A DNA stretch of 60,000 nucleotides from Mobula hypostoma. Taxonomy: Eukaryota. The notes beneath the pieces are model-generated. The model saw only the letters and a list, made by a program, of their open reading frames with translations, did no database searches and was not told where the DNA came from. A program made the translations under genes and the position numbers. Where the stretch lies: assembly GCF_963921235.1 (NCBI RefSeq), contig NC_086097.1, forward strand, positions 69,318,001 through 69,378,000. The letters are read 5' to 3'. This document shows, piece by piece, positions 140 through 60,000 of this stretch (position 1 is its first letter; the number at the start of each line of letters is the position of its first letter).

Positions 140-1305
140 AAGTTTAAAGTTCAAAGTAAATTTATTATCATAATTCATATACAATATACTGCCCTGAGAT
201 TCATTTTATTCAACATACTACCCTGAGATTCATTTCATGCAACATACTACCCTGAGATTCATTTTCTTGTGGGCATTCACAGTAGAATAAAGAAATACAA
301 TGGAATCAATTAAAAACTGCAAAGAAAGTCTGACAAACAATGTCCAAAAAAAAGACAAACTGTGCAAGTACAAAAATCCGAATAATAATAATAATAAACA
401 AGTAAATAAATAATACTGAGAACATCAGTTGAAGAGCCTTTGAAAGTGAGTCAATAGTTTGTGGAAACAACAGGAATTCTGCAGATGCTGGAAATTCAAG
501 CAACATACATCAAAGTTGCTGGTGAACGCAGCAGGCCAGGCAGCATCTATAGGAAGAGGCGCAGTCGACGTTTCAGGCCGAGACCCTTCGTCAGACGAAG
601 GGTCTCGGCCTGAAACGTCGACTGCGCCTCTTCCTATAGATGCTGCCTGGCCTGCTGCGTTCACCAGCAACTTTGATGTATGTTTCAATAGTTTGTGGAA
701 TCAGTTCAGTGTTGAGATACGTGAAGTTAAACATGTTGGCTTATGAGCCAGACACTTGAAGGATAATAACTGTTCCTGAACCTAGTGGTGTCGGACTTGA
801 GGCTTCAGTACCTCTTTCCTGATGGGAGCAGCATGAAGAGAGCATGGCCTGGACAGTGGGGCCCTTGATGATGGATGCTGCTTTCTTGTGGCAGAGCTCC
901 TTGTAGATGTACTCAATGGTAGAGAAGACTTTTCCTGTGATTGACAGGGAAGTACTCACCAGTTTTCGTAGCCTTTTTCTGTTCTTAGGCATCGGTGTTT
1001 CTGTACCAAGCCATGACACAACCAGTCAAGATACTCTCTACTGTTCACCTATAGAAGTTTGTCAAAGTTTGAGATGACATGCCAACTCTGCCCAAACTTC
1101 TAAGAATGTTGAGACCCTGCCATGCCTTCTTTACAATGGCACTTATGAGCTGGTTCCAGGACAGATCCTCAGAAATGATAACGCCAAGGCATTTAAAGTC
1201 ACTGACCTGCTCCACCTCCAATTCTCTAATGAGGACTGGCTCATGGACCCTCAGCTTCTTCCTCCTGTAGTCAATAATCAGCTCTTTGGTTTTGCTGACA
1301 TTGAT
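140..1305 (-). mobile_element. Rex1/Babar LINE 3' portion (host of the palindromic insertion)
   Basis: KNRKRLRKLV...KAASIIKGP; (aagttc)n-like tail at ~140-160; three short catactaccctgagattcattt repeats at ~186-265. Confidence 0.75.
467..684. mobile_element. Penelope-derived fold-back insertion: perfect palindrome with a 16-bp TSD
   Basis: Arms 502-592 and 594-684 are exact reverse complements around a single A at 593; TSD tcaatagtttgtggaa at 451-466 and 685-700. Confidence 0.92.
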
Positions 1306-1564
1306 TGGCTAGTGGTGATAACAAAGAGGGTCAATGAGGGTAGAGCCTTGATTAGTGTACATGGATTTTGGAAAGTTCAAAGAAAGTAAAAGCTGGTGGG
1401 ATCTAAGAGAAAGTGGAAAGATGTATTAACAATTTCCCTAGTGACAGAAAGTTTAGTGTAACAATCAGTCACTGACGGACTGCGTGCAGGCAGAGATGCT
1501 GTGCAGAGAGAAGTCAGGATTAGCCCCTTGTTTTTGAATGATGTAGATTTAAATGCACAGGCCA

Positions 1565-2286: not shown

Positions 2287-3783
2287 TAGAACATAGAACA
2301 TAGAACATAGAACATAGAACAGTACAGCACAGTACAGGCCCTTCAGCCCACATTGCTGTGCCAACCCTCAAACCCTGCCTCCCATATAACCTCCCACCTT
2401 AAATTCCTCCATATACCTGTCTAGTAGTCTCTTAAATTTCACTAGTGTATCTGCCTCCACCACTGACTCAGGCAGTGTATTCCATGCACCAACCACTCTC
2501 TGAGTAAAAAACCTTCCTCTAATATCCCCCTTGAAATTCCCACCCCTTACCTTAAAGCCATATCCCCTTGTACTGAGCAGTGGTGCCCTGGGGAAGAGGC
2601 GCTGGCTATCCACTCTATCTATGCCTTTTAATATCTTGTATATCTCTATCATGTCTCCTCTCATCCTCCTTCTCTCCAAAGAGTAAAGCCCTAGCTCCCT
2701 TAATCTCTGACCATAATGCATACTCTCTAAACCAGGCAGCATCCTGGTAAATCTCCTCTGTACCCTTTCCAATGCTTCCACATCCTTCCTATAGTGAGGC
2801 GACCAGAACTGGACACAGTACTCCAGTTGTGGCCTAACCAGAGTTTTATAGAGCTGCATCATTACCTCGTGACTCTTAAAAACTATCCCTCGACTTATGA
2901 AAGCTAATACCCTATAAGCTTTCTTAACTACCCTATCCACCTGTGAGGCAACTTCCAGGGATCTGTGGACATGTACCCCGAGATCCCTCTGCTCCTCCGC
3001 ACTACCAAGTATCCTGCCATTTACTTTGTACTCTGCCTTGAAGTTTGTCCTTCCAAAGTGTACCACCTCACACTTCTCCGGGTTGAACTCCATCTGCCAC
3101 TTCTCAGCCCACTTCTGCAACCTATCAATGTCTCTTTGCAATCTTCGACAATCCTCTACACTATCTACAATACCACTAACCTTTGTGTCATCTGCAAACT
3201 TTCAAACCCACCCTTCTACCCCCACATCCATGTCGTTAATAAAAATCACGAAAAGTAGGGGTCCCAGAACCGATCCTTGTGGGACACCACTAGTCACAAC
3301 CCTCCAATCCAAATGTTCTCCCTCCACCACGACCCTCTGCCTTCTGCAGGCAAGCCAATTCTGAATCCACCTGGCCAAACTTCCCTGGATCCCATGCCTT
3401 CTGACTTTCTGAATAAGCCTACCATGTGGAACCTTGTCAAATGCCTTACTAAAATCCATATAGATCACATCCACTGCACTACCCTATCTATATGCCTGGT
3501 CACCTCCTCAAAGAACTCTATCAGGCTTGTTAGACATGATCTGCCCTTCACAACGCCATGCTGACTGTCCCTGATCAGACCATGATTCTCTAAATGCCCA
3601 TAGATCCTATCTCTAAGGATCTTTTCCAACAGCTTTCCCACCACAGACGTAAGGCTCACTGGTCTATAATTACCCGGACTATCCCTACTACATTTTTTGA
3701 ACAAGGGGACAACATTCACCTCCCTGCAATCCTCCAGTACCATTCCCGTGGACAACGAGGACATAAAGATCCTAGCCAGAGGA
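2287..3783 (-). mobile_element. CR1 LINE, 5'-truncated and relatively young (RT domain to 3' tail)
   Basis: [38 protein letters not shown], 257-aa C-terminal ORF at 2368-3141; (agaacat)n tail; few frameshifts. Confidence 0.95.
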
Positions 3784-5489
3784 TATGATATCGGAATTTA
3801 ACTCTGAACTCTGACGCCCTGAGCTGTAATAGTGTCAATAGATTTGTTAGATAAAGACAAAATTGTCTCATGAAATTCCATCCAAATAAATGTGAAGAAA
3901 TGCATTGATGTCCTCTAATCAATAGATAGAGTCTTTGAGTCAATATTTTAACATGGAGGTTGATAATAGAAGCAAAAAAAATACAGGGCTGTAGAACATC
4001 TACATCTTCTCCCTATGGCAACCCTAGCTTCACCTTGTCACCGATATTTCCTTTCTCCTGCATTTCCCACACCCTGACTTCACTGAAAGCTGTTTTTCCT
4101 CACTCCCCACCCCCCAGCTCTAATTAAAGGTCTTCAACCGGAAATGTTAAATTTGTCTCTTTCTGCTGATGCTGTTTGACCACTGAATATTCCCAGCATT
4201 CTCTGTTTTTATTTCAGATTTCCAGCATCTGCAGTTTTTTTAAAAAATTGTATTGGCCTTAACCAAATTGTACATCTGGGCAGTAGGCAAATTAGGGATT
4301 TCAGGCTTCTTATTTTAAGGAAGCAACCCATAAGCAAATGTTTGTATTGCCAATTTGTTTAGCAAAACATTCAACAGGAAATCCAATTTCCCTTGTTTGT
4401 ATCCAAACAGAGAGAAATTCTTTATGTTTGATTTGTTTTGAACTGATCACCCAGCCAGCAATCTTCCTGCTTGGAATTCAGCGATCTTCTCTCTAAAACA
4501 TATTTGTTAGAAATTTGGTATCAATTGACTCTATTAACAAAGGTAAGCACGGTCAAATTTTTTGAACACATAGAGGGATTAGGGTGGCCTGATGTGAAAA
4601 TTGATAGAATAACATTATGTGATACAAATGTGATGACATAATGGAATAAGCTCTTAGAAACTGAATTTTCTCCTATATAGTCTCCTTTGATTGAATGGAA
4701 ATTTGTTTAAAATCTCAATATAATATAGTAATGAATTAAATTTTGAATTAATAAATCTATTTTCTTCTTTAAAAACTTTTTTCTGAGTATCAAGTATTGA
4801 ATTCTATCATTTAATTTAACCATTCCTGGCCCATGTAGAAACAGTTCCAAATTTGTATCCCTCACTGTAGTCTTCAATGCCCTCCTTTATACCCTGATAT
4901 GTTCTACTTTATGGAGGCAATCACCATCTTGTGTGAAAACCTATGCAATTAAACTGCAAATTATGCCTCCTGGTGGATTAGATTTCTGATGCGTTTCCAA
5001 GTTGTTTTGGACTTAAGCCTACAATGTGTTCATTGATCTTTTCTCAGCAGAATTTGTAAACATTAAGTATTTTTAATATTACCATTCATACAAATCATTA
5101 TCAAAATGAAGTAAGAAACAGGGATAGAAAAACAGCTGATGTATGTAACAACGTTTGTAGTATATTGACAGCCACACTTAAAAAAATTATCTAATTTCAT
5201 TTTCATATCTAAGGTGCGGTTTGGTGACTAATTATTGAACATAAACATAAAATAATAATAAAAATACAATGCTACAGACAAGAATTTTATCTTTGGCATT
5301 AAAAGAATCAAGCAGTATGTCATGATGACATTCTAACACAACTAAGATAATTTAGCAAACCAGGGGTTATGTCATATATTAAAGAATATTTCAATAAACC
5401 AGGCTATTTGATATCAGTAATCATCACTCAGGGGTATTCCAACTGAAGTATCTTCATTGTTTCAATGTCTTGGCCTACAAGAACAAATA

Positions 5490-10983: not shown

Positions 10984-11582
10984 GATGAGAAAATCTGCAG
11001 ATGCTGGAAATCCAAGTAACACACACAAAATGCTGGAAGAACTCAGCAGGCCAGGCAGTTCACATTCAGCATGAGGCCACACTCAGGTTGGAGGAGCAAT
11101 ACTATATATTCCGTTTGGGTAATCTCCAGACTGATGGCACGAACAACAATTTCTTAAACATTTCAGTAGCTCCCCCCACCTTCACCATTACCATTCCCAT
11201 TTCCCTCCCTCACTTCATCTCCTTACCTGCCATCAACTGCCTCTGATGCTCTTCCCCATTCCCATTCTTCTATGGTCTTCTACCTTTTCCTATTAGATTC
11301 CCTCTTCTCCAGCCCCTTATCTCTTTCACTTATCAGTTTTCCAGCCCTTTACTTCACCTCCATCCCCTCCCAGTTTCACCTCTCACCTACCACCTTGTAC
11401 TTCTTTCTCCATTCCCCTCCACCTTCTTACTCGAACTTCCCATCTTTTCTTTCTAGTCCTGATGAAGAGTCTCAGCCCAAAATGTTGACTGTTAACTCTT
11501 TTCCATTGATGCTGCCTGGCTTGCTGAGTTCTTCCAGCACTTTGGGTGTTGCTTGGAGTTCCAGCATCTGCAGATTTTCTTC
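10984..11582 (+). mobile_element. Penelope-like element 3' fragment with an inverted 5' pLTR piece
   Basis: EATLRLEEQYYIFRLGNLQTDG (GIY-YIG C-terminus); inverted terminal copies at 10984-11058 and ~11510-11582; degenerate hammerhead at ~11455-11490. Confidence 0.85.
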
Positions 11583-20390: not shown

Positions 20391-21140
20391 AACACAAGCA
20401 ACATACATCAAAGTTGCTGGTGAACGCAGCAGGCCAAGCAGCATCTATAGGAAGAGGTGCAGTCGACGTTTCAGGCCGAGACCCTTCGTCAGGACTAACT
20501 GAAGGAAGAGTGAGTAAGGGATTTGAAAGTTGGAGGGGGAGGGGGAGATCCAAAATGATAGGAGAAGACAGGAGGGGGAGGGAAGACAGGAGGGGGAGGG
20601 ATAGAGCCGAGAGCTGGACAGGTGATAGGCAAAAGGGGATACGAGAGGATCATGGGACAGGAGGTCCGGGAAGAAAGACAAGGTGGGGGGGAACCCAGAG
20701 GATGGGCAAGAGGTATATTCAGAGGGACAGAGGGAGAAAAAGGAGAGTGAGAGAAAGAATGTGTGCATAAAAATAAGTAACAGATGGGGTACGAGGGGGA
20801 GGTGGGGCATTAGCGGAAGTTAGAGAAATCGATGTTCATGCCATCAGGTTGGAGGCTACCCAGACGGAATATAAGGTGTTGTTCCTCCAACCTGAGTGTG
20901 GCTTCATCTTTACAGTAGAGGAGGCCGTGGATAGACATGTCAGAATGGGAATGGGATGTGGAATTAAAATGTTTGGCCACTGGGAGATCCTGCTTTCTCT
21001 GGCGGACAGAGCGTAGATGTTCAGCAAAGCGGTCTCCCAGTCTGCGTCGGGTCTCACCAATATATAAAAGGCCACATCGGGAGCACCGGACGCAGTATAT
21101 CACCCCAGTCGACTCACAGGTGAAGTGATGCCTCACCTGG
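20391..21140 (-). mobile_element. Penelope-like element 3' end: uninterrupted GIY-YIG endonuclease domain plus pLTR, in NUBPL intron 10
   Basis: ORF 20810-21140: FTCESTGVIYCVRCSRCGLLYIGETRRRLGDRFAEH...VAKHFN...EQHLIFRLGSLQPDGMN. Confidence 0.93.
20461..20496 (-). ncRNA. Minimal type I hammerhead ribozyme in a Penelope pLTR
   Basis: AGUC-CUGACGA-AGG gucucgg CCU-GAAAC-GUC^GACU: stem I AGUC/GACU, intact core, palindromic ACGU stem III. Confidence 0.85.
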
Positions 21141-21414: not shown

Positions 21415-21630
21415 AACACAAACAAAATGCTGGAAGAACTCAGCAGGCCAGGCAACAACTATGCAAAAGAGTACAGCCGATGTTTTGGGTTGAGACTCTT
21501 CAGCAAGACTGGAGAAAAAAAGATGAGGAGTAAATTCAAAAGATGGGGTAAGGGGAGGAAGAAACACAAGATAATAGGTGAAACTGGGAGGGGGAGGTGT
21601 GAAGTAAAGAGTTGGGAAGTAGATTGGTGA
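21415..21630 (-). mobile_element. Penelope pLTR fragment, older subfamily
   Basis: aaaatgctggaagaactcagcaggccaggca...; degenerate hammerhead at ~21475-21510. Confidence 0.7.
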
Positions 21631-29536: not shown

Positions 29537-31142
29537 CAGGTTTCCCCCACCATCCGAAGGTAGAGCGTTCCTATGAAACAGTTCATAAGCCAGAAGGTCG
29601 TAAAGCGAAGAAGCAATCACCATTTATTTATATGGGAAAAATTTGTGAGCGTACGCAGACCCAAAAATAACCTACCGAATCATGCCAAATAACACATAAA
29701 ACCTAAAATAACAGTAACATATAATAAAAGCAGGAATGATATGATAAATACACAGCCTATATAAAGTAGAAATACTTCTCTACAATCTTTGCCTGCACTG
29801 TTCTCCGTAGCGAAAGTCTCATGCAAGCGCTCTTGGCAGAAACACGGCGCAAGCACTCTCCAGTAACCTTTAAGCTATGAAGCTGACAAATCATACCAAA
29901 TAACGCATAAAAATACACAGCCTATATAAAGTAGAAATACTGTATGTACAGTGTAGTATTACTTACGGGAATCAGGAAGACAGCGCCAAGCACACTGATG
30001 ATGGCGTGTTAGGCTGAATCGGAGGTTGGGGTGGTGCAGTGGTCCCCACCCTCCGGGCAGCGAACCAATACCGATCCGCGAAGCATGCAGGGGTGCAGCG
30101 GTAGCCGGGAGGCACCCAGCACGTCTTTAAGAAAAAAGCCGAAATAAACAAGCTAATTAATTAGGTGCTGCCCAGCACGTAAATGTCGGCCCAGATCAGA
30201 GGCGACACACCAGCAATTGCCTCTGACCTGGGCCGACATTTACGTGCCGGGCGACACCTAATTAATTAGCTTGTTTATTTCGGCTTTTTTCTTAAAGACG
30301 TGCTGGGTGCCTCCCAGCTACCGCTGCATTTTTCATGGATCGGTATCTGTCCATGGCCCGGGGGTTGGGGTGTCAGGGCACTGGGGTGTCATCAAGTCAA
30401 CTTCTTCTATGTCTGCCTGCCTCGATGTCGAAGGTCGAGGTTTGTCATCTGCTGTGGCTGATGTGGAAGGCTTGAAAAACGACAGTATGCTTGCCTGCTA
30501 GCCTCGCGCATTTGTCTATCATACAGTTCTTTGTAAGCACTCAAACCATCCTGCAAATATACCCTAAACTGACGTACCCTTTCAAAATTAAAGTTGTACT
30601 TTATCATTGCAGCGAAAATCTCATGCAGTTGCTTCATGTGTTCAGTTCCTGGATGACTTCATTTTCGGTCCGTTCGCTACTACATTCGGTTTCGATTGTT
30701 ATCCTTTCCTCTTCCAATTGCATCAGCTCTTCATCTATCAGTTCTTGGTCATGGGATGCCAAACCTCTTCAACATCATCTTCGTCAACTTCCACAAGCCA
30801 AACTCACTTTGTCCTTACTTCGTTCACCACGATCGAAACGCTTAATTATGTCTAGTTTTACGCTAAGTGTAACACCCTTACGAGCTGTTTTAGGCTTTTC
30901 CGATACCTTAGAACTCATCTTGCTAATGGCTGCTCACAGGCACGTGTTTAAGCAATGCCGGCTAGAATGCCGTTCCGAATCCGGGGGACAGCAGCTGCTT
31001 GGGGCGTGTGCTACTTTTTTCTCGCACGCTGCTTTTTTCATAAGTGAAAACACCTCTTGTTAGCGAAAACAGGGAACTAATGTAGGTCTTTCATAACAGT
31101 GAGGTTTCATAAAGCGAATGTTCGAAAAGCAGGGGACACCTG
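29537..31142 (-). mobile_element. Non-autonomous Tigger/pogo DNA transposon (internal-deletion derivative)
   Basis: TA|caggtttcccc...ggggacacctg|TA; N-terminal CENP-B/psq-like MSSKVSEKPKTARKGVTLSVKLDIIKRFDRGE at ~30800-30918 joined directly to the C-terminal remnant (30407-30637); DDE domain absent. Confidence 0.88.
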
Positions 31143-37249: not shown

Positions 37250-38560
37250 AATTGAATTGAATTGACTTTATTACTTACATCCTTCACATACACGAGGAGT
37301 AAAACTCTTAACATTACATCCCCGTGTAAAAGTAATTTGTAATAAATAGCATGTACAATAGGACCGTCAATATAACTTAGAAAGACAACTCTATCAGTGT
37401 GAATTAATCAGTCTGATGGCCTGGTGGAAGAAGCTGTCCCAGAGCCTGATGGTCCTGGCTTTTATGCTGTGGTACAGTTTCCTGGATGGTAGCAGCTGGA
37501 ACAGTTTGTGGTTGGGGTGACTTGGGTCCCCACTATTTCTTCTGGCCCTTTTTACACACTTGTCTTTGTAAGTGTCCTGAATAGTTGGAAGTTCACATCT
37601 ATAGATGTGCTGGGCTGTCCGCACCACTCTCTGCAGAGTCCTGCGATTGACGCAAGTATAGTTCCCCTACCAGGCAGTGATGCAGCCAGTCAGGATGCTC
37701 TCAACTGTGCCCCTGTAGAAAGTTCTTAGGATTTGGGGGCCCACACCAAACTTCTTCAACCATCTGAGGTGAAAGAGGCACTGCTGTGCTTTTTTTAAAC
37801 CACACAGCCAGTATGTACACACCATGTGAGATATTCAGTGATGTGTATCCTCAGGAACTTAAAGCTGCTCACCCTCTCAACCCGAAATCCATTGATGTCA
37901 ATAGGGGTTAGCTTGTCTCCTTTCCTCCTGTAATCCACAACCAGCTCCTTTGATTTTGCGACACTGCGGGAGAGGTTGTTTTCTTGACACCACCATGTGA
38001 GGGTGATGACTTCTTCTCTGTAAGCTGCCTCGTTATTATTTGAGATTTGGCCAATCAATGGAGTATTGTCAGCAAATTTAATTAGCAGATTGGAGCTGTG
38101 GGTGGAAACACAGTCATGGGTATACAGAGAGTAAAGATGGGGGCTTAGGACACAGACCTGAGGGGCACCTGTGTTGAGGGTCAGAGGGGCAGAGATGAGG
38201 GAGCCCACTCTTACCACCTGTCGACGATCTGACAGGAAGTCCAGGATCCAGCTACCCAAGGCAGATTGAAGGCCGAGGTCTCTGAGCTTCTTGTCGAGCC
38301 TGGAGGGAATTCTGATGTTGAATGCGAAACCGTAGTCCGAGAACAGCATTCTCACAGAAGCATCCTTCTTCTCCAGATGTGTAAGGACAGTGTGTAGAGC
38401 TGTGACAATTTGTGTCACCTATCGATCAGTTATGTCGGTAGGCGAATTGTAGGGAGTCCAGTGTGGGTGATAGCAAGCTGCAGATGTAGTCCTTGACCAG
38501 CCTCTCAAAGCATTTGCTTATTATTGAGGTGAGTGCGACAGGATGCCAGTCGTTCAGACA
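37250..38560 (-). mobile_element. Rex1/Babar LINE (RT domain to 3' tail)
   Basis: 207-aa ORF TALHTVLTHLE...TGAPQVCVLSP...IKFADN; (aattg)n tail. Confidence 0.9.
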
Positions 38561-40680: not shown

Positions 40681-40984
40681 CTTTTAAAAGGGAAAAGGTA
40701 TGATAATTAGACTGTTTATTCTAAACTATGTCTACGACCACATAACCCCATCTACTAAATGCAAACAACATATTCAAGTCTATGCTACAGAGAAGCAGAC
40801 AACTTATTTGCTTGCACAAAAAGGGTGGGACTGGCATTTTTAAAAGCTTTTACAATACATTAGGAAAGTCACAGAGATTTTATTGTTGATTTAAAAAGGG
40901 CTCTCATCAAGATGTCCTTCTGAATGCTTCTTTTCTTTTCAAATGTCTTGTCACAGTGCAATTACAATGAACAACAATGAGACA

Positions 40985-41785
40985 CTGCTCCTAAAGATGT
41001 CCTGGGTTCTTTGTAGGCTAGTGCCCAAGATGGAGCTGACTAGATTTACAACCTTCTGCAGCTTCTTTCGGTCCTGTGCAGTAGCCCCTCCATACCAGAC
41101 AGTGATAGAGCCTGTCAGAATGCTCTCCATGGTACAACTATAGAAGTTTTTGAGTGCATTTAATGACATGTCAAATCTCTTCAAACTCCTAATAAAGTAT
41201 AGCCGCTGTCTTGCCTCCTTTATAACTACATCGATATGTTGGGACCAGATTTGATCCTCAGAGATCTTGACACCCAGGAACTTGAAGCTGCTCACTCTCT
41301 CCACTTCTGATCCCTCTATGAGGATTGGTTTGTGTTCCTTCGTCTTACCCTTCCTGAAGTCCACAATCAGCTCTTTCGTCTTACTGACCTTGAGTGCCAG
41401 GCTGTTGCTACGGCACCACTCCACGAGTTGGCATATCTCATTCCTGTATGCCCTCTTGTCACCACCTAAGATTCTACTAACAACGGTTATATCATCAGCA
41501 AATTTATAGATGGTATTTGAGCAGGCCTAGCCACATAGTCATGAATATAGAGAGAATAGAGCAGTGGGCTAAGCACACACCCCTGAGGTGCACCAGTGTT
41601 GATCGTCAGTGAGGAGGATATGTTATACCAATCTGCACAGATTGTGGTCTTCCGGTTAGGAAGTCAAGGATCCAATTGCAGAGGGAGGTACAGAGGCCCA
41701 GGTTCTGCAACTTCTCAATCAGGACTGTGGGAATGATGATATTAAATGCTGAACTATAGTGGATGAACAGCATCCTGACATAGGT
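40985..41785 (-). mobile_element. Rex1/Babar LINE RT fragment
   Basis: EWCRSNSLALKVSKTKELIVDFRK...RQRLYFIRSLKRF. Confidence 0.88.
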
Positions 41786-48989: not shown

Positions 48990-50256
48990 ATTAGTGCTGC
49001 AACAGGGGAGAGTGACCATTGGGTGGGAAATAACCTCATACTTCAAGTAACTCCACAAAAAGGTAATTGAAAAGCATAAATCAGGAGATGGATACAATAA
49101 AATTTCCAAGTCACTGAATATCCACTGGAGTACAGTTACGTCAATAATCAAGAAACAGAGAAAATATGGCACAACTGTAAATCTGCCTACAGCAGGTGAT
49201 CCTCAAAAACTAAGTGACCATGCAAGAAGGGCACTCGTGAGGGAGGCCACCAAGAGACCCATGACAACTCTGGAGGAGTTACAAGCCTCAATGGCTGAGA
49301 TGGGAGAGACTGCGCATACAACAAATGTTGCCCAGGTACTTCACTAGTCGCAGCTTTATGGGAGAGTGGCAAAGAGAAAGCCACTGTTGAAAAAAAAACC
49401 ACATGAAATCTCAGCTAGAGTTTGCCAGAAGGCAGGTGGGAGAATCTGAAGTCAGCTGAAAGAATTATGGTCCGATGAAACAAAATTGAGCTTTTTGGCC
49501 ATCAGACTAAACACCACCTTTGGCAGAAGACAAACTCCGTACATCAAAAACACACCATCCCTACTGTGAAGCATGGTGGTGGCTGCATCATGCTGTGGGA
49601 ATGCTTCACTGCAGCAGGACCTGGAAAGCTTGTGAAGGTAGAGGGTAAAATGAGTGCAGCAAAATTACAGGGATATCCTGGAGAAAAACCTGATGCAGTT
49701 TGCAAAAGAACTGCAACTTGGGTGAAGATTTGTTTTCCAGCAAGACAATGGCCCAAAGCATAAAGCCAAACCTACACAGGAATGGCTTAAAACAACAAAG
49801 TTAATGTCCTGGAGTGACCAAGTCAGCGTCCAGACCTCAATCCAATTGAGAATTTGTGGCTGGACTTGAAAAGGGCTGTTCACCCATGGCCCCCATGCAA
49901 TCTGATAGAACTTGAGCAGATTTGTAAAGAATGGGGGAAAATTGCAGTGTCCAGATATGCAAAGCTGACAGAGACCTATCCACACAGACTCAAGGCTGTA
50001 ATTGCTGCCAAAGGTGCATCTACTAAACACTGACTTGAAGGGGGTAAATACTTATGCAATCAATTATTTTGTGTTTTATATTTGCAACTAATTTAGATCA
50101 CTTTGTAGAGATCTGTTTTCACTTTGACACGAAAGAGTACTGTTGATCAGTGTCAAAAAAGCCAAATTAAATCCACTGTGATTCAATGTTGTAAAACAAT
50201 AAAACATGAAATGAAAATATCTGGGGAGGGGGCTGAATACTTTTTAATAGGCAATG
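48990..50256 (+). mobile_element. Tc1-family DNA transposon, decayed transposase, left end missing
   Basis: WSDETKIELFG, VKHGGGCIMLWECF, FQQDNGPKH, PDLNPIENLW; right TIR tgaatactttttaataggcaatg|TA. Confidence 0.9.
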
Positions 50257-50700: not shown

Positions 50701-51176
50701 AACAGGAATTCTGCAGATGCTGGAAATTTAAGCAACACACATAAAAGTTGCTGGTGAACGCAGCAGGCCAGGCAGCATCTCTAGGAAGAGGTGCAGTCGA
50801 TGTTTCAGGCCGAGACCCTTCATCAGGACTAACTGAAGGAAGAGTGAGTAAGGGATTTGAAAGTTGGAGGGGGAGGGGGAGATCCAAAATAATAGGAGAA
50901 GACAGGAGGGGGAGGGATGGAGCCAAGAGCTGGACAGGTGATAGGCAAAAGGGGATACGAGAGGATCATGGGACAGGAGGTCCGGGAAGAAAGACAAGGG
51001 GGGGGGGGAACCCAGAGGATGGGCAAGGGGTATATTCAGAGGGACAGAGGGAGAAGAAGGAGAGTGAGAGAAAGAATGGGTGTATAAAAATAAGTAATAG
51101 ATGGGGTACGAGGGGGAGGTGGGGCATTAGCGGAAGTTAGAGAAGTCGATGTTCATGCCAGCAGGTTGGAGGCTGC
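50701..51176 (-). mobile_element. Penelope 3' fragment (pLTR with a hammerhead at 50795-50830) and an 11-bp TSD
   Basis: Near-identical to 20391-20860; TSD taactgctaac at 50690-50700 and 51177-51187. Confidence 0.9.
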
Positions 51177-53239: not shown

Positions 53240-53735
53240 TACAAGAGATTTTGCAGATGAAAACCCAGGGTAAAAAATACAAAATGCTGGAGGAACTCAT
53301 CAGATCAGGTAGCAATGAAAATGAATAAACAGTTGACATTTCAGGGCAAGACCCTTCACCAGGACTGGAAAGGAAGAGAGAAGCTCGAATAAGATGGTGG
53401 GGAAAGGGAAGAAGGTGATAGGTTAAGCCAGGTGGGTGGGGGAGGGGAGATTATGTGAGAACAGGTGGGAGGTGATAGGTGGAAAAGGTAATGAGATAAA
53501 GATGAAGACTCTGATAGGAGGGGAGAGTGGACAATGGGAAGGAGGAGGGCACCAGGGAAGGTGATAAGCAGGTGAGGAGAAGTAAGGGGGGTGCCAGAGT
53601 GGGGGATGGAAGAGGAAAGCAGAGAAGAAAAAATTACAAGTTAGAAAAATAAATGTTCATCAATTTGGAGGCTACCCAGACAGAATATGAGGTCTTGCTT
53701 CTCCAACCTGAGAGTGGCCTCATTATGGCAGTAGA
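53240..53735 (-). mobile_element. Penelope 3' fragment, older subfamily
   Basis: EATLRLEKQDLIFCLGSLQ remnant at 53660-53725; pLTR with a degenerate hammerhead at ~53331-53366. Confidence 0.8.
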
Positions 53736-53839: not shown

Positions 53840-56220
53840 TGAGTATAGTATTTGAAAGCGAGAATAACACTACACCTGCGCTAATTCTTGCAGCAACTGG
53901 TGACCCTGTGATGTCTGTCTCAGATGCCAACATCAGAAAATCTTTCAAGAGGGTGAACCTTCACAAGGCATCAGTCCTCAATGGTGTACCTGATAGGGCA
54001 CTGAAACCCTGTGCCAACCATCTGACAGGACTGTTTAAGGTCATCTTCAATCTTTCACTGCCGCAGTCAGCAGTTATCACCTGCTTTAAAAAGGCAACAA
54101 TCATACCAGCGCCAAAGAAGAGCAGGGTGAGTTGCCTCAACAACTATTGCCCAGTTGCACTCACATCTACTGTGATGAAGTGCTTTGAGAGGTTGGCCAT
54201 GGCTAGAATCAACTCCTGCTTAAGCAAGAATCTGGACCTGCTGTAATTTGCCTATCGCCACAGTAGGTGTACAGCAAATGCCATTATACTGGCTCTCCAC
54301 TCAGCCTTTGAGCACCTCAACAATACCTACACCAAACATGAGGAAATCTGCAGATGCTGGCATTTCAAGCAACACACATAAAAGTTGCTGGTGAACGCAG
54401 CAGGCCAGGCAGCATCTCTATGCTGTGCCTCTCCTAGAAATACCTACACCAGGTCACTGTTCGTTACTTACAGCTTAGCTCTTAAAACCATCATGCCTTC
54501 AGTACAACTCAACAAGCTCCAAAACCTGGGCTTCCGTACCTCCCTTTGCAACTGGATTCTTGACTTCCTCATTAAGAGATCACAGTCAGTGCAGATTGGA
54601 AATAACAGCTCCTCCTCGTTGATGGTCAACTCAAGGATTCGTGCTTAGTCCACTGCTATACTCTCAATACACCCACAATTGTATGGCTAGGCACAGTTCA
54701 AATACCATCTATAAATTTGCCAGTGACACAACTACAGTTGGCAGAATTTCAGATGATGACAAGGAGGCACACAGGAGGTGAGACAGGCCAGTTAGTTGAG
54801 TGGTGTCGCAGTAACAAACCTTGCACTCAACGTCAGTAACACCAAGAAATTGATAGCAGATTTCAGGAAGGGGAAGTCAAGGGAATGCACACCAGCCCTC
54901 ATTGATCAGCAGTGGAAAAGGTGAGCAGTTTCAAGTTCCTGGGTGTCAACATCTCTGAAAATCTATCCTGGACCCAGCATATTGCTGAAATTTAGTTCAA
55001 AGTACATTAATTATCAAAGTACGCATACTTTAAACAACCTTGAGATTTATTTCCTTACAGGCAGCCATGAAACAAAGGACCCTATAGAACACATTAAAAA
55101 CAAAGGAAGACCTTCAAATACCCAACGTGCAGAGAGAGAGAAAAAATAAATCATACAAACAATAAAGTAAGCAAACAGCATTCACAACTAAAGTTCACAA
55201 AGCCAATTCAGAAGTCCACAGATGCCGATTCAGAAGGCCTTGGTCCAGCACAGAGTCAAGCCAATCCCACAAGGCAGCAAGCCAAACCAACTCATCTCTT
55301 GCCTCTGACCTCGATCGTTTCAATCTGGCCCGGTGCTTAAATCATCCAAACCACATCACCCTCAAGCTTGGGCTCAGTTGCCTTGATAAGGCCAGTACTC
55401 AACCTTCCCAAATTGGCTTAACTCTTATTGAACAAACCTCGGACCTTTCCACACCTCCGCTCTGCTGCACTGAATTGCCTCCAATTCCGCTCCAGCCCAG
55501 ACATACTGCATCCTTTCTGCCCCAGCAAGACACCAGTCACACCACAAAAATGCTAGATCATACAGGCGATTCCGCTCAACTCCGACAGGAAAGCCACAGG
55601 TCACTGTTTGCAGTGTTCATTTACCAGAAAAAGTGTGAACAATAAAGTATTTAGTTGCTTTTTTTGTTTCATCAGCCACCAGAAAGTTGTCACTCAAACC
55701 AGTAAGTAGCACCATCTTACAAAGAAGGCATGACAGTGGCTATATTTCATCAGGAGTTTGAGGAAACTTAGTATGACACCAAAAACTCACAAAATTCTAC
55801 AGATGTACAATGGAGAGTATTCTAACTGGCTGCATCACCATCTGGCACGGAGAGGTCACAGCACGGGATTGAAAAAAGCTGCAAAAAATTACAAACTCAG
55901 CCAGCTCCATTATGGGCACTGGCCACCATCATTGTGGTTCCCCATCATTCACGATGTGTCCTCTTCTCGTTGCAAGGTGGTGGTACAGGAGCCTGAAGAC
56001 ACACACTCAACACTTTAGGAACAGCTTCTTCCCCACCACCATCAGATCATGTACATTATCTCAATCATTTTTTTCTCTTTTTGCACTACTTATTTAATTT
56101 TTTAAAATATATGTTATTGTAATTTATAGTTTCCTTTATTATGGATTGCAATGCACTGCTGCCGCAATACAAAAAAATTCATGACATATGCCAGTGATAT
56201 TAAACCTGATTCTGATTATC
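53840..56220 (+). mobile_element. Rex1/Babar LINE with nested insertions (Penelope piece at 54335-54438; another repeat at ~54985-55715)
   Basis: CLNNYCPVALTSTVMKCFERL; tail attaaacctgattctgatt; the nested Penelope piece has the TSD aatacctacacca at 54322-54334 and 54439-54451. Confidence 0.85.
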
Positions 56221-58293: not shown

Positions 58294-58431
58294 CAAACGA
58301 GAGAAAATCTGCAGATGCTGGAAATCTGAGCAACACAGAGTCCTGCCGTAGGGTTTCGGCCCGAAATATCGACTGTAGTTTTTTCCACAGATACTACTGG
58401 TCTGCTGAGTTCCTCCAGCATTTTGTGTGTG
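58294..58431. mobile_element. Penelope pLTR fold-back fragment
   Basis: Minus-oriented pLTR end joined at ~58339 to a plus-oriented piece starting agtcctgccgtagggtttcggcccgaaatatcgact (degenerate hammerhead). Confidence 0.7.
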
Positions 58432-58559
58432 TAACATCATATTATAAAGATTGGGTCTTGTCCCGCAGACAGATCTTAGCAGCCATATCCCAAGGCTTTG
58501 TCTCTGGAACGCATGGACAGTCTTTGATTTGACTTTTGAACATTTGGTTAAAATGGTTC

Positions 58560-60000
58560 TATAGTCATAGAAAACCTACAACACAATACAGGCCTTTCAG
58601 CCCAAAAAGCTGTGCCAAACATGTCCTTACCTTAGAAATTACTAGACTTCCCTATAGCCCTCTATTTTTCGAAGCTCCATGTACCTATCCAAAGGTATAT
58701 TAAAAGACCCTATCGTATCCGCCTCCACCACCGTTGCCGGCAGCCCATTCCACGCACTTACTACTCTCCGAGTAAAAAAAACTTACCCCTGCCATCACCT
58801 CTGTACCTACTCCTCAGCACTTTAAACCTGTGTCCTCTTGTAGCAGCCACTTCAGCTCTGGAAAAAAGTCTCTGACTATCCACACGATCAATGCCTGTCA
58901 TCATCTTATACACCTCTATCAGGGCACCTCTCATCCTCCATCACTCCAAGGAGAAAAGACCAAGTTCACTCAACCTGTTTTCATAAGGCATGCTCCCCAA
59001 TCCAGGCAACATCCTTGTAAATCTCCTTTGCACCCTTTCTATGGCTTCCACATCCTTCCTGTAGTGAGGCGACCAGAAATGAGCACAGTACTCCAAGTGG
59101 GGTCTGACTAGGGTCCTAAATAGCTGCAATATTACCTCTCAGCTCCTAAATTCAATTCCGCGATTAATGAAGACCCCACGGTATGCCTTCTTAACCACCG
59201 CATCAACCAGCGCAGCTGCTTTGAGCATCCTATAGACTTGGACCCCAAGATCCCTCTGATCCTCCACATTACCAAGAGTCTTACCATTAATACTATATTC
59301 TGCCATCATATTTGACCTACCAAAATGAATCACTTCATACTTACCTGGGTTGAACTCCATTTGCCACTTCTCAGCTCAGTTTTGCATCCTATCAATGTCC
59401 TGCTGTAACCTCTGACAGCCCTCCACACTATCCACAACAGCTCCAACCTTTGTGTCACCAGCAAACTTACTAACCCATCCCTCCACTTCCTTATCCAGGT
59501 CATTTATAAAAATCACAAAGAGTAAAGGTCCCAGAACAGATCCCTGAGGCACACCACTGGTCACCGACCTCCATGCAGAATATGACCCGTTTACAACCAC
59601 TCTTCGCCTTCTGTGGGCAAGTCAGTTCTGGATCCACAAAGCAATATCCCCTTGGATCCCTTACCTCCTTACTTTCTCAATAAGCCTTGCATGGGGTACC
59701 TTATCAGGTGCCTTGCTGAAATACATATGCACTACATCTACTGCTCTTCCTGCATCAATGTGTTTAGTCACATCCTCAAAAAAATCATTCAGGCTCATAA
59801 GGCACGACCTGCCCTTGACAAAGCCATGCTGACTATTCCTAATCATATTATACCTCTCCAAATGTTCATAAATCCTGCCTCTCAGGATCTTCTCCAACAA
59901 CTTACCAACCACTGATGTAAGACTCACTGGTCTATAATATCCCGGGCTATCTCTACTCCCTTTCTTGAATAAAGGAACAACATCCGCAACGCTCCAATCC
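58560..60000 (-). mobile_element. CR1 LINE ORF2 (continues beyond the window)
   Basis: [44 protein letters not shown]. Confidence 0.93.

Follow-up and report, generated by a model that had tools for sequence, protein, structure and literature searches.

Architecture of the insertion site

The locus contains a 218-bp insert (467–684) that splits a decayed LINE-type host element (240–1308, minus strand), recognized from empty-site alignments and a weak ALKBH8_N match. On sequence grounds, the insert is a pair of head-to-head end modules of a Penelope-like element (PLE), one with and one without a tail. Along the plus strand, the left copy of the target-site duplication (TSD), host LINE sequence at 451–466 (plus strand), is followed by the tailed pseudo-LTR (pLTR) arm (467–594, minus strand), which matches other copies in the window (the whole stretch of 60,000 nucleotides, or 60 kb, that was analyzed) and covers element positions +1 to +128, with C3 of the hammerhead core numbered +1. 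The outermost 35 nt of this arm (467–501, minus strand) represent the PLE tail, the outer end of which would be the first start site of reverse transcriptase (RT). The turn (590–596) reads GTC-A-GAC on the plus strand, with the axis at A593 and a 1-nt overlap at G594; beyond it lie the inverted tail-less arm (594–684, plus strand; element +3 to +93), ending at the putative second RT start, and the right TSD copy (685–700, plus strand).

The initial annotation reported exact inverted arms of 91 bp with a 1-nt spacer and a TSD of 16 bp, and both descriptions hold. The segments 502–592 and 594–684 are 100% complementary over 91 nt around the single base A593, and the insert as a whole is asymmetric, with the 35 nt at 467–501 present on the left arm alone and without a mirror. 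The mirror ends at the tail boundary and is followed by the exact 16-bp duplication, from which the host LINE continues. The 16-mers at 451–466 and 685–700 are identical, represent the only two occurrences of this word in the 60-kb window (both strands counted), and would match at a fixed place by chance with a probability of about 5e-10. When the insert and one 16-mer are removed in silico, the resulting empty site aligns unbroken to 17725–17178 (66%, E 1e-65), a paralogous old repeat that contains the duplicated word once, and aligns also to 41093–41346. Given that the paralogue crosses the reconstructed empty site with a single 16-mer, the duplication is genuine.

In the host LINE, the segment 1048–1308 gives a weak Pfam match to ALKBH8_N (E 0.015), and three tandem 29-bp units (179–268) are located at the LINE end. 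The frame 40954–41526 matches both RVT_1 (below the cut-off) and ALKBH8_N in Pfam, and decayed LINE-type RT fragments with RVT_1 matches below the cut-off are found at 2313–3797, 37795–38418, 40951–41526 and 58566–60000, with 72% likeness between 2313–3732 and 58566–60000. A Pfam scan of 43 of the 55 long frames in the window, a search blind to short exons, yields mobile-element domains alone and no host-gene domain. A fragment of a Tc1/Sleeping Beauty-type transposase is present at 49051–49347 (HTH_SB, E 2e-13). Another long palindrome, which has no relation to the PLE, spans 30044–30370; its core arms (30094–30203 and 30219–30328) are 95% complementary around a 15-nt spacer and are accompanied by looser outer arms. 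It resembles a fold-back or miniature inverted-repeat element, with no TSD identified.

Identity of the arms and the family in the window

The left part of the insert, read on the minus strand, shows 94.5–98% identity to the end modules at 50826, 20492 and 24632, and 73–92% to older ones; the tailed arm shares 94.5% over 128 nt with the copy 50826–50699 and 98% over 98 nt with the copy 20492–20395. Upstream of the module at 20492, the frame 20813–21133 matches the GIY-YIG domain (PF01541, E 1.8e-5, 25.3 bits with a cut-off of 22.6), and the copy 20395–21133 accordingly carries this domain together with a module 98% identical to the focal arm. Because the same module follows a GIY-YIG frame, it is the 3' pseudo-LTR of an endonuclease-positive PLE, in agreement with the earlier assignment of the arms to Penelope pLTR sequence. 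No copy found in the 60-kb window reaches the PLE reverse transcriptase. The focal insert displays two traits of endonuclease-positive PLEs, a tail of 30–40 nt at one end (here 35 nt, 467–501) and direct and inverted pLTRs bounded by a TSD. It consists of just the last 128 and 91 nt of the element, has no open reading frame and no coding capacity, and is most likely neutral. As a repeat insertion the locus is ordinary, being of a type that PLEs are known to produce, and the insert is the shortest form of the published two-armed PLE layout.

Three other identities were considered and rejected. A non-LTR retrozyme, as defined in 10.64898/2026.07.22.740005, consists of tandem units arranged head-to-tail, every one of which carries a complete hammerhead; the present units are arranged head-to-head, and both motifs are incomplete. 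A miniature inverted-repeat (fold-back) DNA transposon is contradicted by the 35-nt unpaired tail on one side and by the retroelement origin of the arms. An Rfam match to the microRNA mir-3926 at 558–628 is below the gathering score and reflects the hairpin.

The window contains ten recognizable insertions of this family, five of which are two-armed (a faint relic at 4120–4234 is excluded from these counts). The arm ends form a tailed class at +123 to +129 (seven ends) and a tail-less class at +92 to +102 (six ends, with +86 in one decayed copy), and the focal outer ends, +128 and +93, match these two usual 3' end classes. Apart from the focal insert, the start lies at −5 to −4 in three short copies (24637, 28297 and 58339). 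In two of the two-armed inserts, the arms are nearly non-overlapping, a twin-priming pattern: in 58296–58432, +88 to +129 is inverted beside −4 to +92, and in 54335–54441, +31 to +50 is inverted beside +44 to +129. Duplications of 11–14 bp flank four other window copies; the TSD search gave just a weak candidate at 58k and no duplication around the 11k or 20k copy.

The hammerhead motif

The minus strand at 562–594 carries a minimal hammerhead motif that lacks the 5' strand of stem I; it was recognized by a motif pattern, and its layout is as in PMC4209133. It includes the core (594–588), stem II, GAAA, a palindromic stem III, the cleavage site at 567/566 and the 3' strand of stem I, so that the CUGANGA and GAAA boxes, stem II, the palindromic stem III and the NUH site are all present at 594–567 of the minus strand. 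The core reads CUGACGA, and position 593 is its U4, as initially annotated. The predicted cleavage site, in contrast, lies 26 nt off the axis, and each arm retains it intact; a turn at the cleavage site itself is rejected on these grounds. An intact site in both arms implies that the RNA template would have been either uncleaved or religated. The reported loss of stem I is confirmed: one of the first four stem I pairs is left in the focal tailed arm, compared with at least five pairs in all three intact young copies (20492, 24632 and 50826). The inverted arm has three stem I pairs, yet its core is broken, and neither focal arm combines the 4–5 bp stem I of minimal PLE hammerheads with an intact core.

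An Rfam search at E ≤ 1 returns nine matches, none of them a hammerhead, and the top match is to a miRNA model that falls on the hairpin and scores below threshold; given this lack of a covariance-model match, the ribozyme call is based on the motif and the published description of minimal hammerheads. Folding of a single arm gives z = −0.92, a value that does not support stability of the monomer fold; any RNA transcribed through the whole insert would be predicted to form a hairpin of about −193 kcal/mol. In contigs from metagenomes, viruses and prokaryote genomes, the motif pattern detects no locus. A shorter pattern detects 66 metagenome loci, which are taken as chance matches because all are at most 33 nt long (65 of the 66 match less than 30 nt, and the longest 33 nt).

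The minimal type I hammerheads of metazoan PLEs described by Cervera and De la Pena 2014 (PMC4209133, accessible portion) share with the present sequences the core boxes, an extra base before stem II, the palindromic minimal stem III and, in the intact window copies, a stem I of 4–5 bp; that paper also notes pairs of motifs on opposite strands, 100–700 bp apart. Unlike these, the focal motifs lose stem I or C3 and both share one core. The young subfamily differs further in that a G-U replaces the conserved G10.1-C11.1 pair: U is found at hammerhead position 11.1 in all four young copies (575, 20473, 24613 and 50807), and older copies at 28k and 58k retain C.

Age and subfamily

Over 98 compared positions, the tailed arm and the nearest copy in the window show 2 differences. 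In contigs from four public DNA runs (two samples, one per organism, designated A and B), C560 accounts for 0.33 and 0.34 of the summed depth in the two organism A runs and 0.02 in the two organism B runs, and T506 for 0.19–0.21 in A versus 0.03 in B; summed depth does not equal copy number, and organism A may be the source of the window and thus does not provide independent support. The flank shows no differences in organism A contigs and 2 in 94 in organism B. The contrast in C560 and T506 suggests that one subfamily underwent an expansion in lineage A. Since the arms share variants typical of this subfamily, which is enriched in just one of the two related organisms, a young age of the insertion is probable. 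Together with the identical arms and the two differences from the nearest copy, these observations agree with the recent origin proposed in the initial annotation. No empty-allele joint is present among the joints listed (best 15 of 1057; contigs of the four DNA runs, two samples). A contig starts at 689 in all four runs, which is uninformative with respect to the allele. Four presumed-RNA runs contain 0.07–0.10 of the query words.

The axis and other head-to-head joints

The native sequence at the axis is GTC-CT-GAC, a micro-inverted repeat with 3-bp arms, and the focal turn is this sequence short of one base. The end module contains four micro-inverted repeats, the centres of which occupy 8 of 98 positions, and the focal axis falls on one of them.

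Twelve distinct head-to-head joints formed by other PLE copies were detected in the public contigs among the best 15 of 1057 and the best 12 of 734 rows of two tables (ten from the former, two from the latter). Depth was the criterion for choosing these rows, the sides of which measure 20–28 nt at 90% likeness, so that the joints show variety rather than frequencies, and the arm lengths of the rebuilt joints, symmetric by construction, carry no evidence. Break points vary across the twelve listed joints, three of which are symmetric: two turn at +45/46, about 43 nt from the focal axis, with 1-nt spacers on a native CTATAG, and one turns at +60, off the listed micro-repeats. The joint 550–636 occurs in all four runs. 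In four of the twelve listed joints, one arm reaches the 5' edge of the core, and three of these four turn at most 2 nt from it.

Origin of the palindrome

We consider it reasonably probable that the locus is a recent and very short insertion of an endonuclease-positive PLE in which two primed cDNAs met near the RNA 5' end and were joined at a micro-repeat. The GIY-YIG nuclease would nick both target strands, 16 bp apart, and each target 3' end would prime RT at one of two internal start sites, +128 and +93. Extension of both cDNAs would continue across the uncleaved hammerhead and stop where short copies usually begin, at about −5 to +3, the RNA 5' end presumably lying near −4. The cDNA 3' ends could then join across the native GTC/GAC micro-inverted repeat with the loss of one base, repair filling in the remaining gaps, and the ribozyme would be disabled as a by-product, with stem I or C3 missing. 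Under this scheme, the perfect palindrome at the junction results from the two cDNAs having stopped no more than 2 nt apart.

Joining of two cDNAs is favored given that the target 3' ends abut the two end classes and that a PLE primes on two strands in vitro. Poseidon of Anolis (PAc), the anole PLE for which this mechanism was examined by Frangieh et al. 2024 (PMC11167929, accessible portion), cuts and extends both strands, with two start sites bounding the tail; PAc is a predicted dimer, and hammerhead cleavage is dispensable. In the window, besides the match of the focal ends to both classes, half of the ten insertions are two-armed, and the near non-overlapping arms of 54335–54441 and 58296–58432 are what twin priming yields; the position of the axis on one of four micro-inverted repeats and the varied break points of the twelve listed joints also speak for two cDNAs. 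Several points count against this reading: it presupposes a pair of near-identical RNAs, or else strand displacement on a single RNA; the arms overlap at the turn by just 1 nt, and from the native micro-repeat a spacer of 2 nt would be expected where 1 nt is seen; the +60 axis is off the listed micro-repeats, and the joints come from depth-picked rows with short sides.

The snap-back proposed in the initial annotation offers a different reading, here judged rather unlikely, in which a single cDNA started at the tail end reaches the 5' edge of the hammerhead, folds on the GTC/GAC micro-repeat, copies itself for 91 nt and joins the other target end. A cDNA ending at −3 could form a 3-bp stem with a 2-nt loop, but loops of 1–2 nt make a poor hairpin. 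Copy-back would also leave to chance the stop at +93, where tail-less family copies end, so that a second priming fits this end better than fold-back run-off. The identity of the arms, including a G at +35 that is absent from all three closest window copies, is explained more simply by one self-copying cDNA than by two; however, the arm variants are frequent in organism A contigs (C560 about 33% and T506 about 20% of the summed depth) and are thus subfamily marks that do not prove copying of one arm from the other. Self-priming is, in addition, the published reading of PLE junction palindromes (PMC3846280, accessible text), which counts against two cDNAs. As for the place of the snap-back, the turn lies on a native 3-bp micro-inverted repeat, 26 nt away from the predicted cleavage site, and the turning points of other copies are diverse, some of them symmetric and outside the ribozyme; these observations do not support a snap-back at the ribozyme as initially stated.

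That the ribozyme sets the axis, through either cleavage or stalling of RT on its fold, appears improbable. The coincidence of 593 with U4, the start of short copies at the 5' strand of stem I, and the four listed joints with an arm at the core edge would be accounted for, but the cleavage site is 26 nt distant and uncut in both arms, and the symmetric turns at +45/46 and +60 among the listed joints are outside the motif. Furthermore, inverted insertions are known in PLE clades without canonical hammerheads (PMC8557442), and hammerhead mutants left the in vitro insertion products unchanged (PMC11167929), according to the accessible parts of these papers. An assembly or fold-back read artefact is very improbable. 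The data are contigs, and none of the 32 pieces listed (254,744 more exist) spans 593 plus flank; unique contigs over such an axis would, however, be about 60 nt long, shorter than any of the 32 (at least 71 nt). A fold-back read would be expected to mirror the tail and the left flank too, whereas the focal mirror stops at the tail boundary, and the 11–14 bp duplications at four other window copies likewise argue for real insertions.

Returning to two target-primed cDNAs, a broader proposal is tentative: minimal two-armed inserts might be genomic records of a double target-primed reaction performed by a PLE dimer on short RNA starting at the hammerhead 5' edge, with micro-inverted repeats joining the cDNA ends, and a recently expanded subfamily might still seed spacer-less palindromes, built anew at each insertion. 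If so, new palindromes would be potential fragile sites and sources of double-stranded RNA. The literature searched, which lay largely outside subscription journals, yielded no passage that puts forward a two-primer model for palindromes of PLEs.

Comparison with known systems

In the twin priming of L1 (5' inversion), the second target strand primes a second cDNA, the junction shows microhomology, the TSD lies outside, and the inverted and direct parts are not known to overlap. The focal insert may have formed by an analogous route, save that both of its arms copy the same 91 nt; it also differs in having no poly(A) tail.

Head-to-head insertions of endonuclease-positive PLEs with an inverted pLTR, a one-sided tail and a TSD were described by Arkhipova et al. 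2013 (PMC3846280) and Craig et al. 2021 (PMC8557442), and the tail is defined in PMC3846280 and PMC11167929. The accessible portions of the first two papers describe, as seen here, an inverted 5'-truncated pLTR beside a direct one, a tail of 30–40 nt at one end, a TSD and a junction palindrome. Unlike those elements, the focal insert has neither an open reading frame nor a body and is palindromic in all but the tail, and its TSD is 16 bp long compared with 8–10 bp in the rotifer cases. With PAc, the focal insert would share two RT start sites bounding the tail, cutting and extension of both strands, an AT-rich target and an uncleaved hammerhead RNA; joined two-armed products are not described for PAc in the accessible text of PMC11167929.

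What follows priming in PLEs is, according to PMC11167929 and PMC8557442, not yet defined, which makes the focal locus valuable as a clean specimen. A census of the young two-armed inserts of this family, which has a very high copy number, could discriminate between two-primer joining and snap-back by sequence alone, and if many inserts are polymorphic, they would provide a natural series for the survival time of spacer-less palindromes of about 180 bp in a vertebrate genome.

Sequences preceding the end module

In long copies, a pyrimidine tract ending in YAG, similar to a splice acceptor, is located directly 5' of stem I (20493–20520, 11454–11480, 21510–21530 and 53368–53390). We take the bases before stem I in these copies to fit an initiator consensus as well. 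Both resemblances concern the place, −5 to −4, at which short copies begin. In the PLE of D. virilis, helix I marks the end of an intron (PMC4209133) and the pLTR contains the promoter (PMC2377424), according to the accessible parts of these reports.
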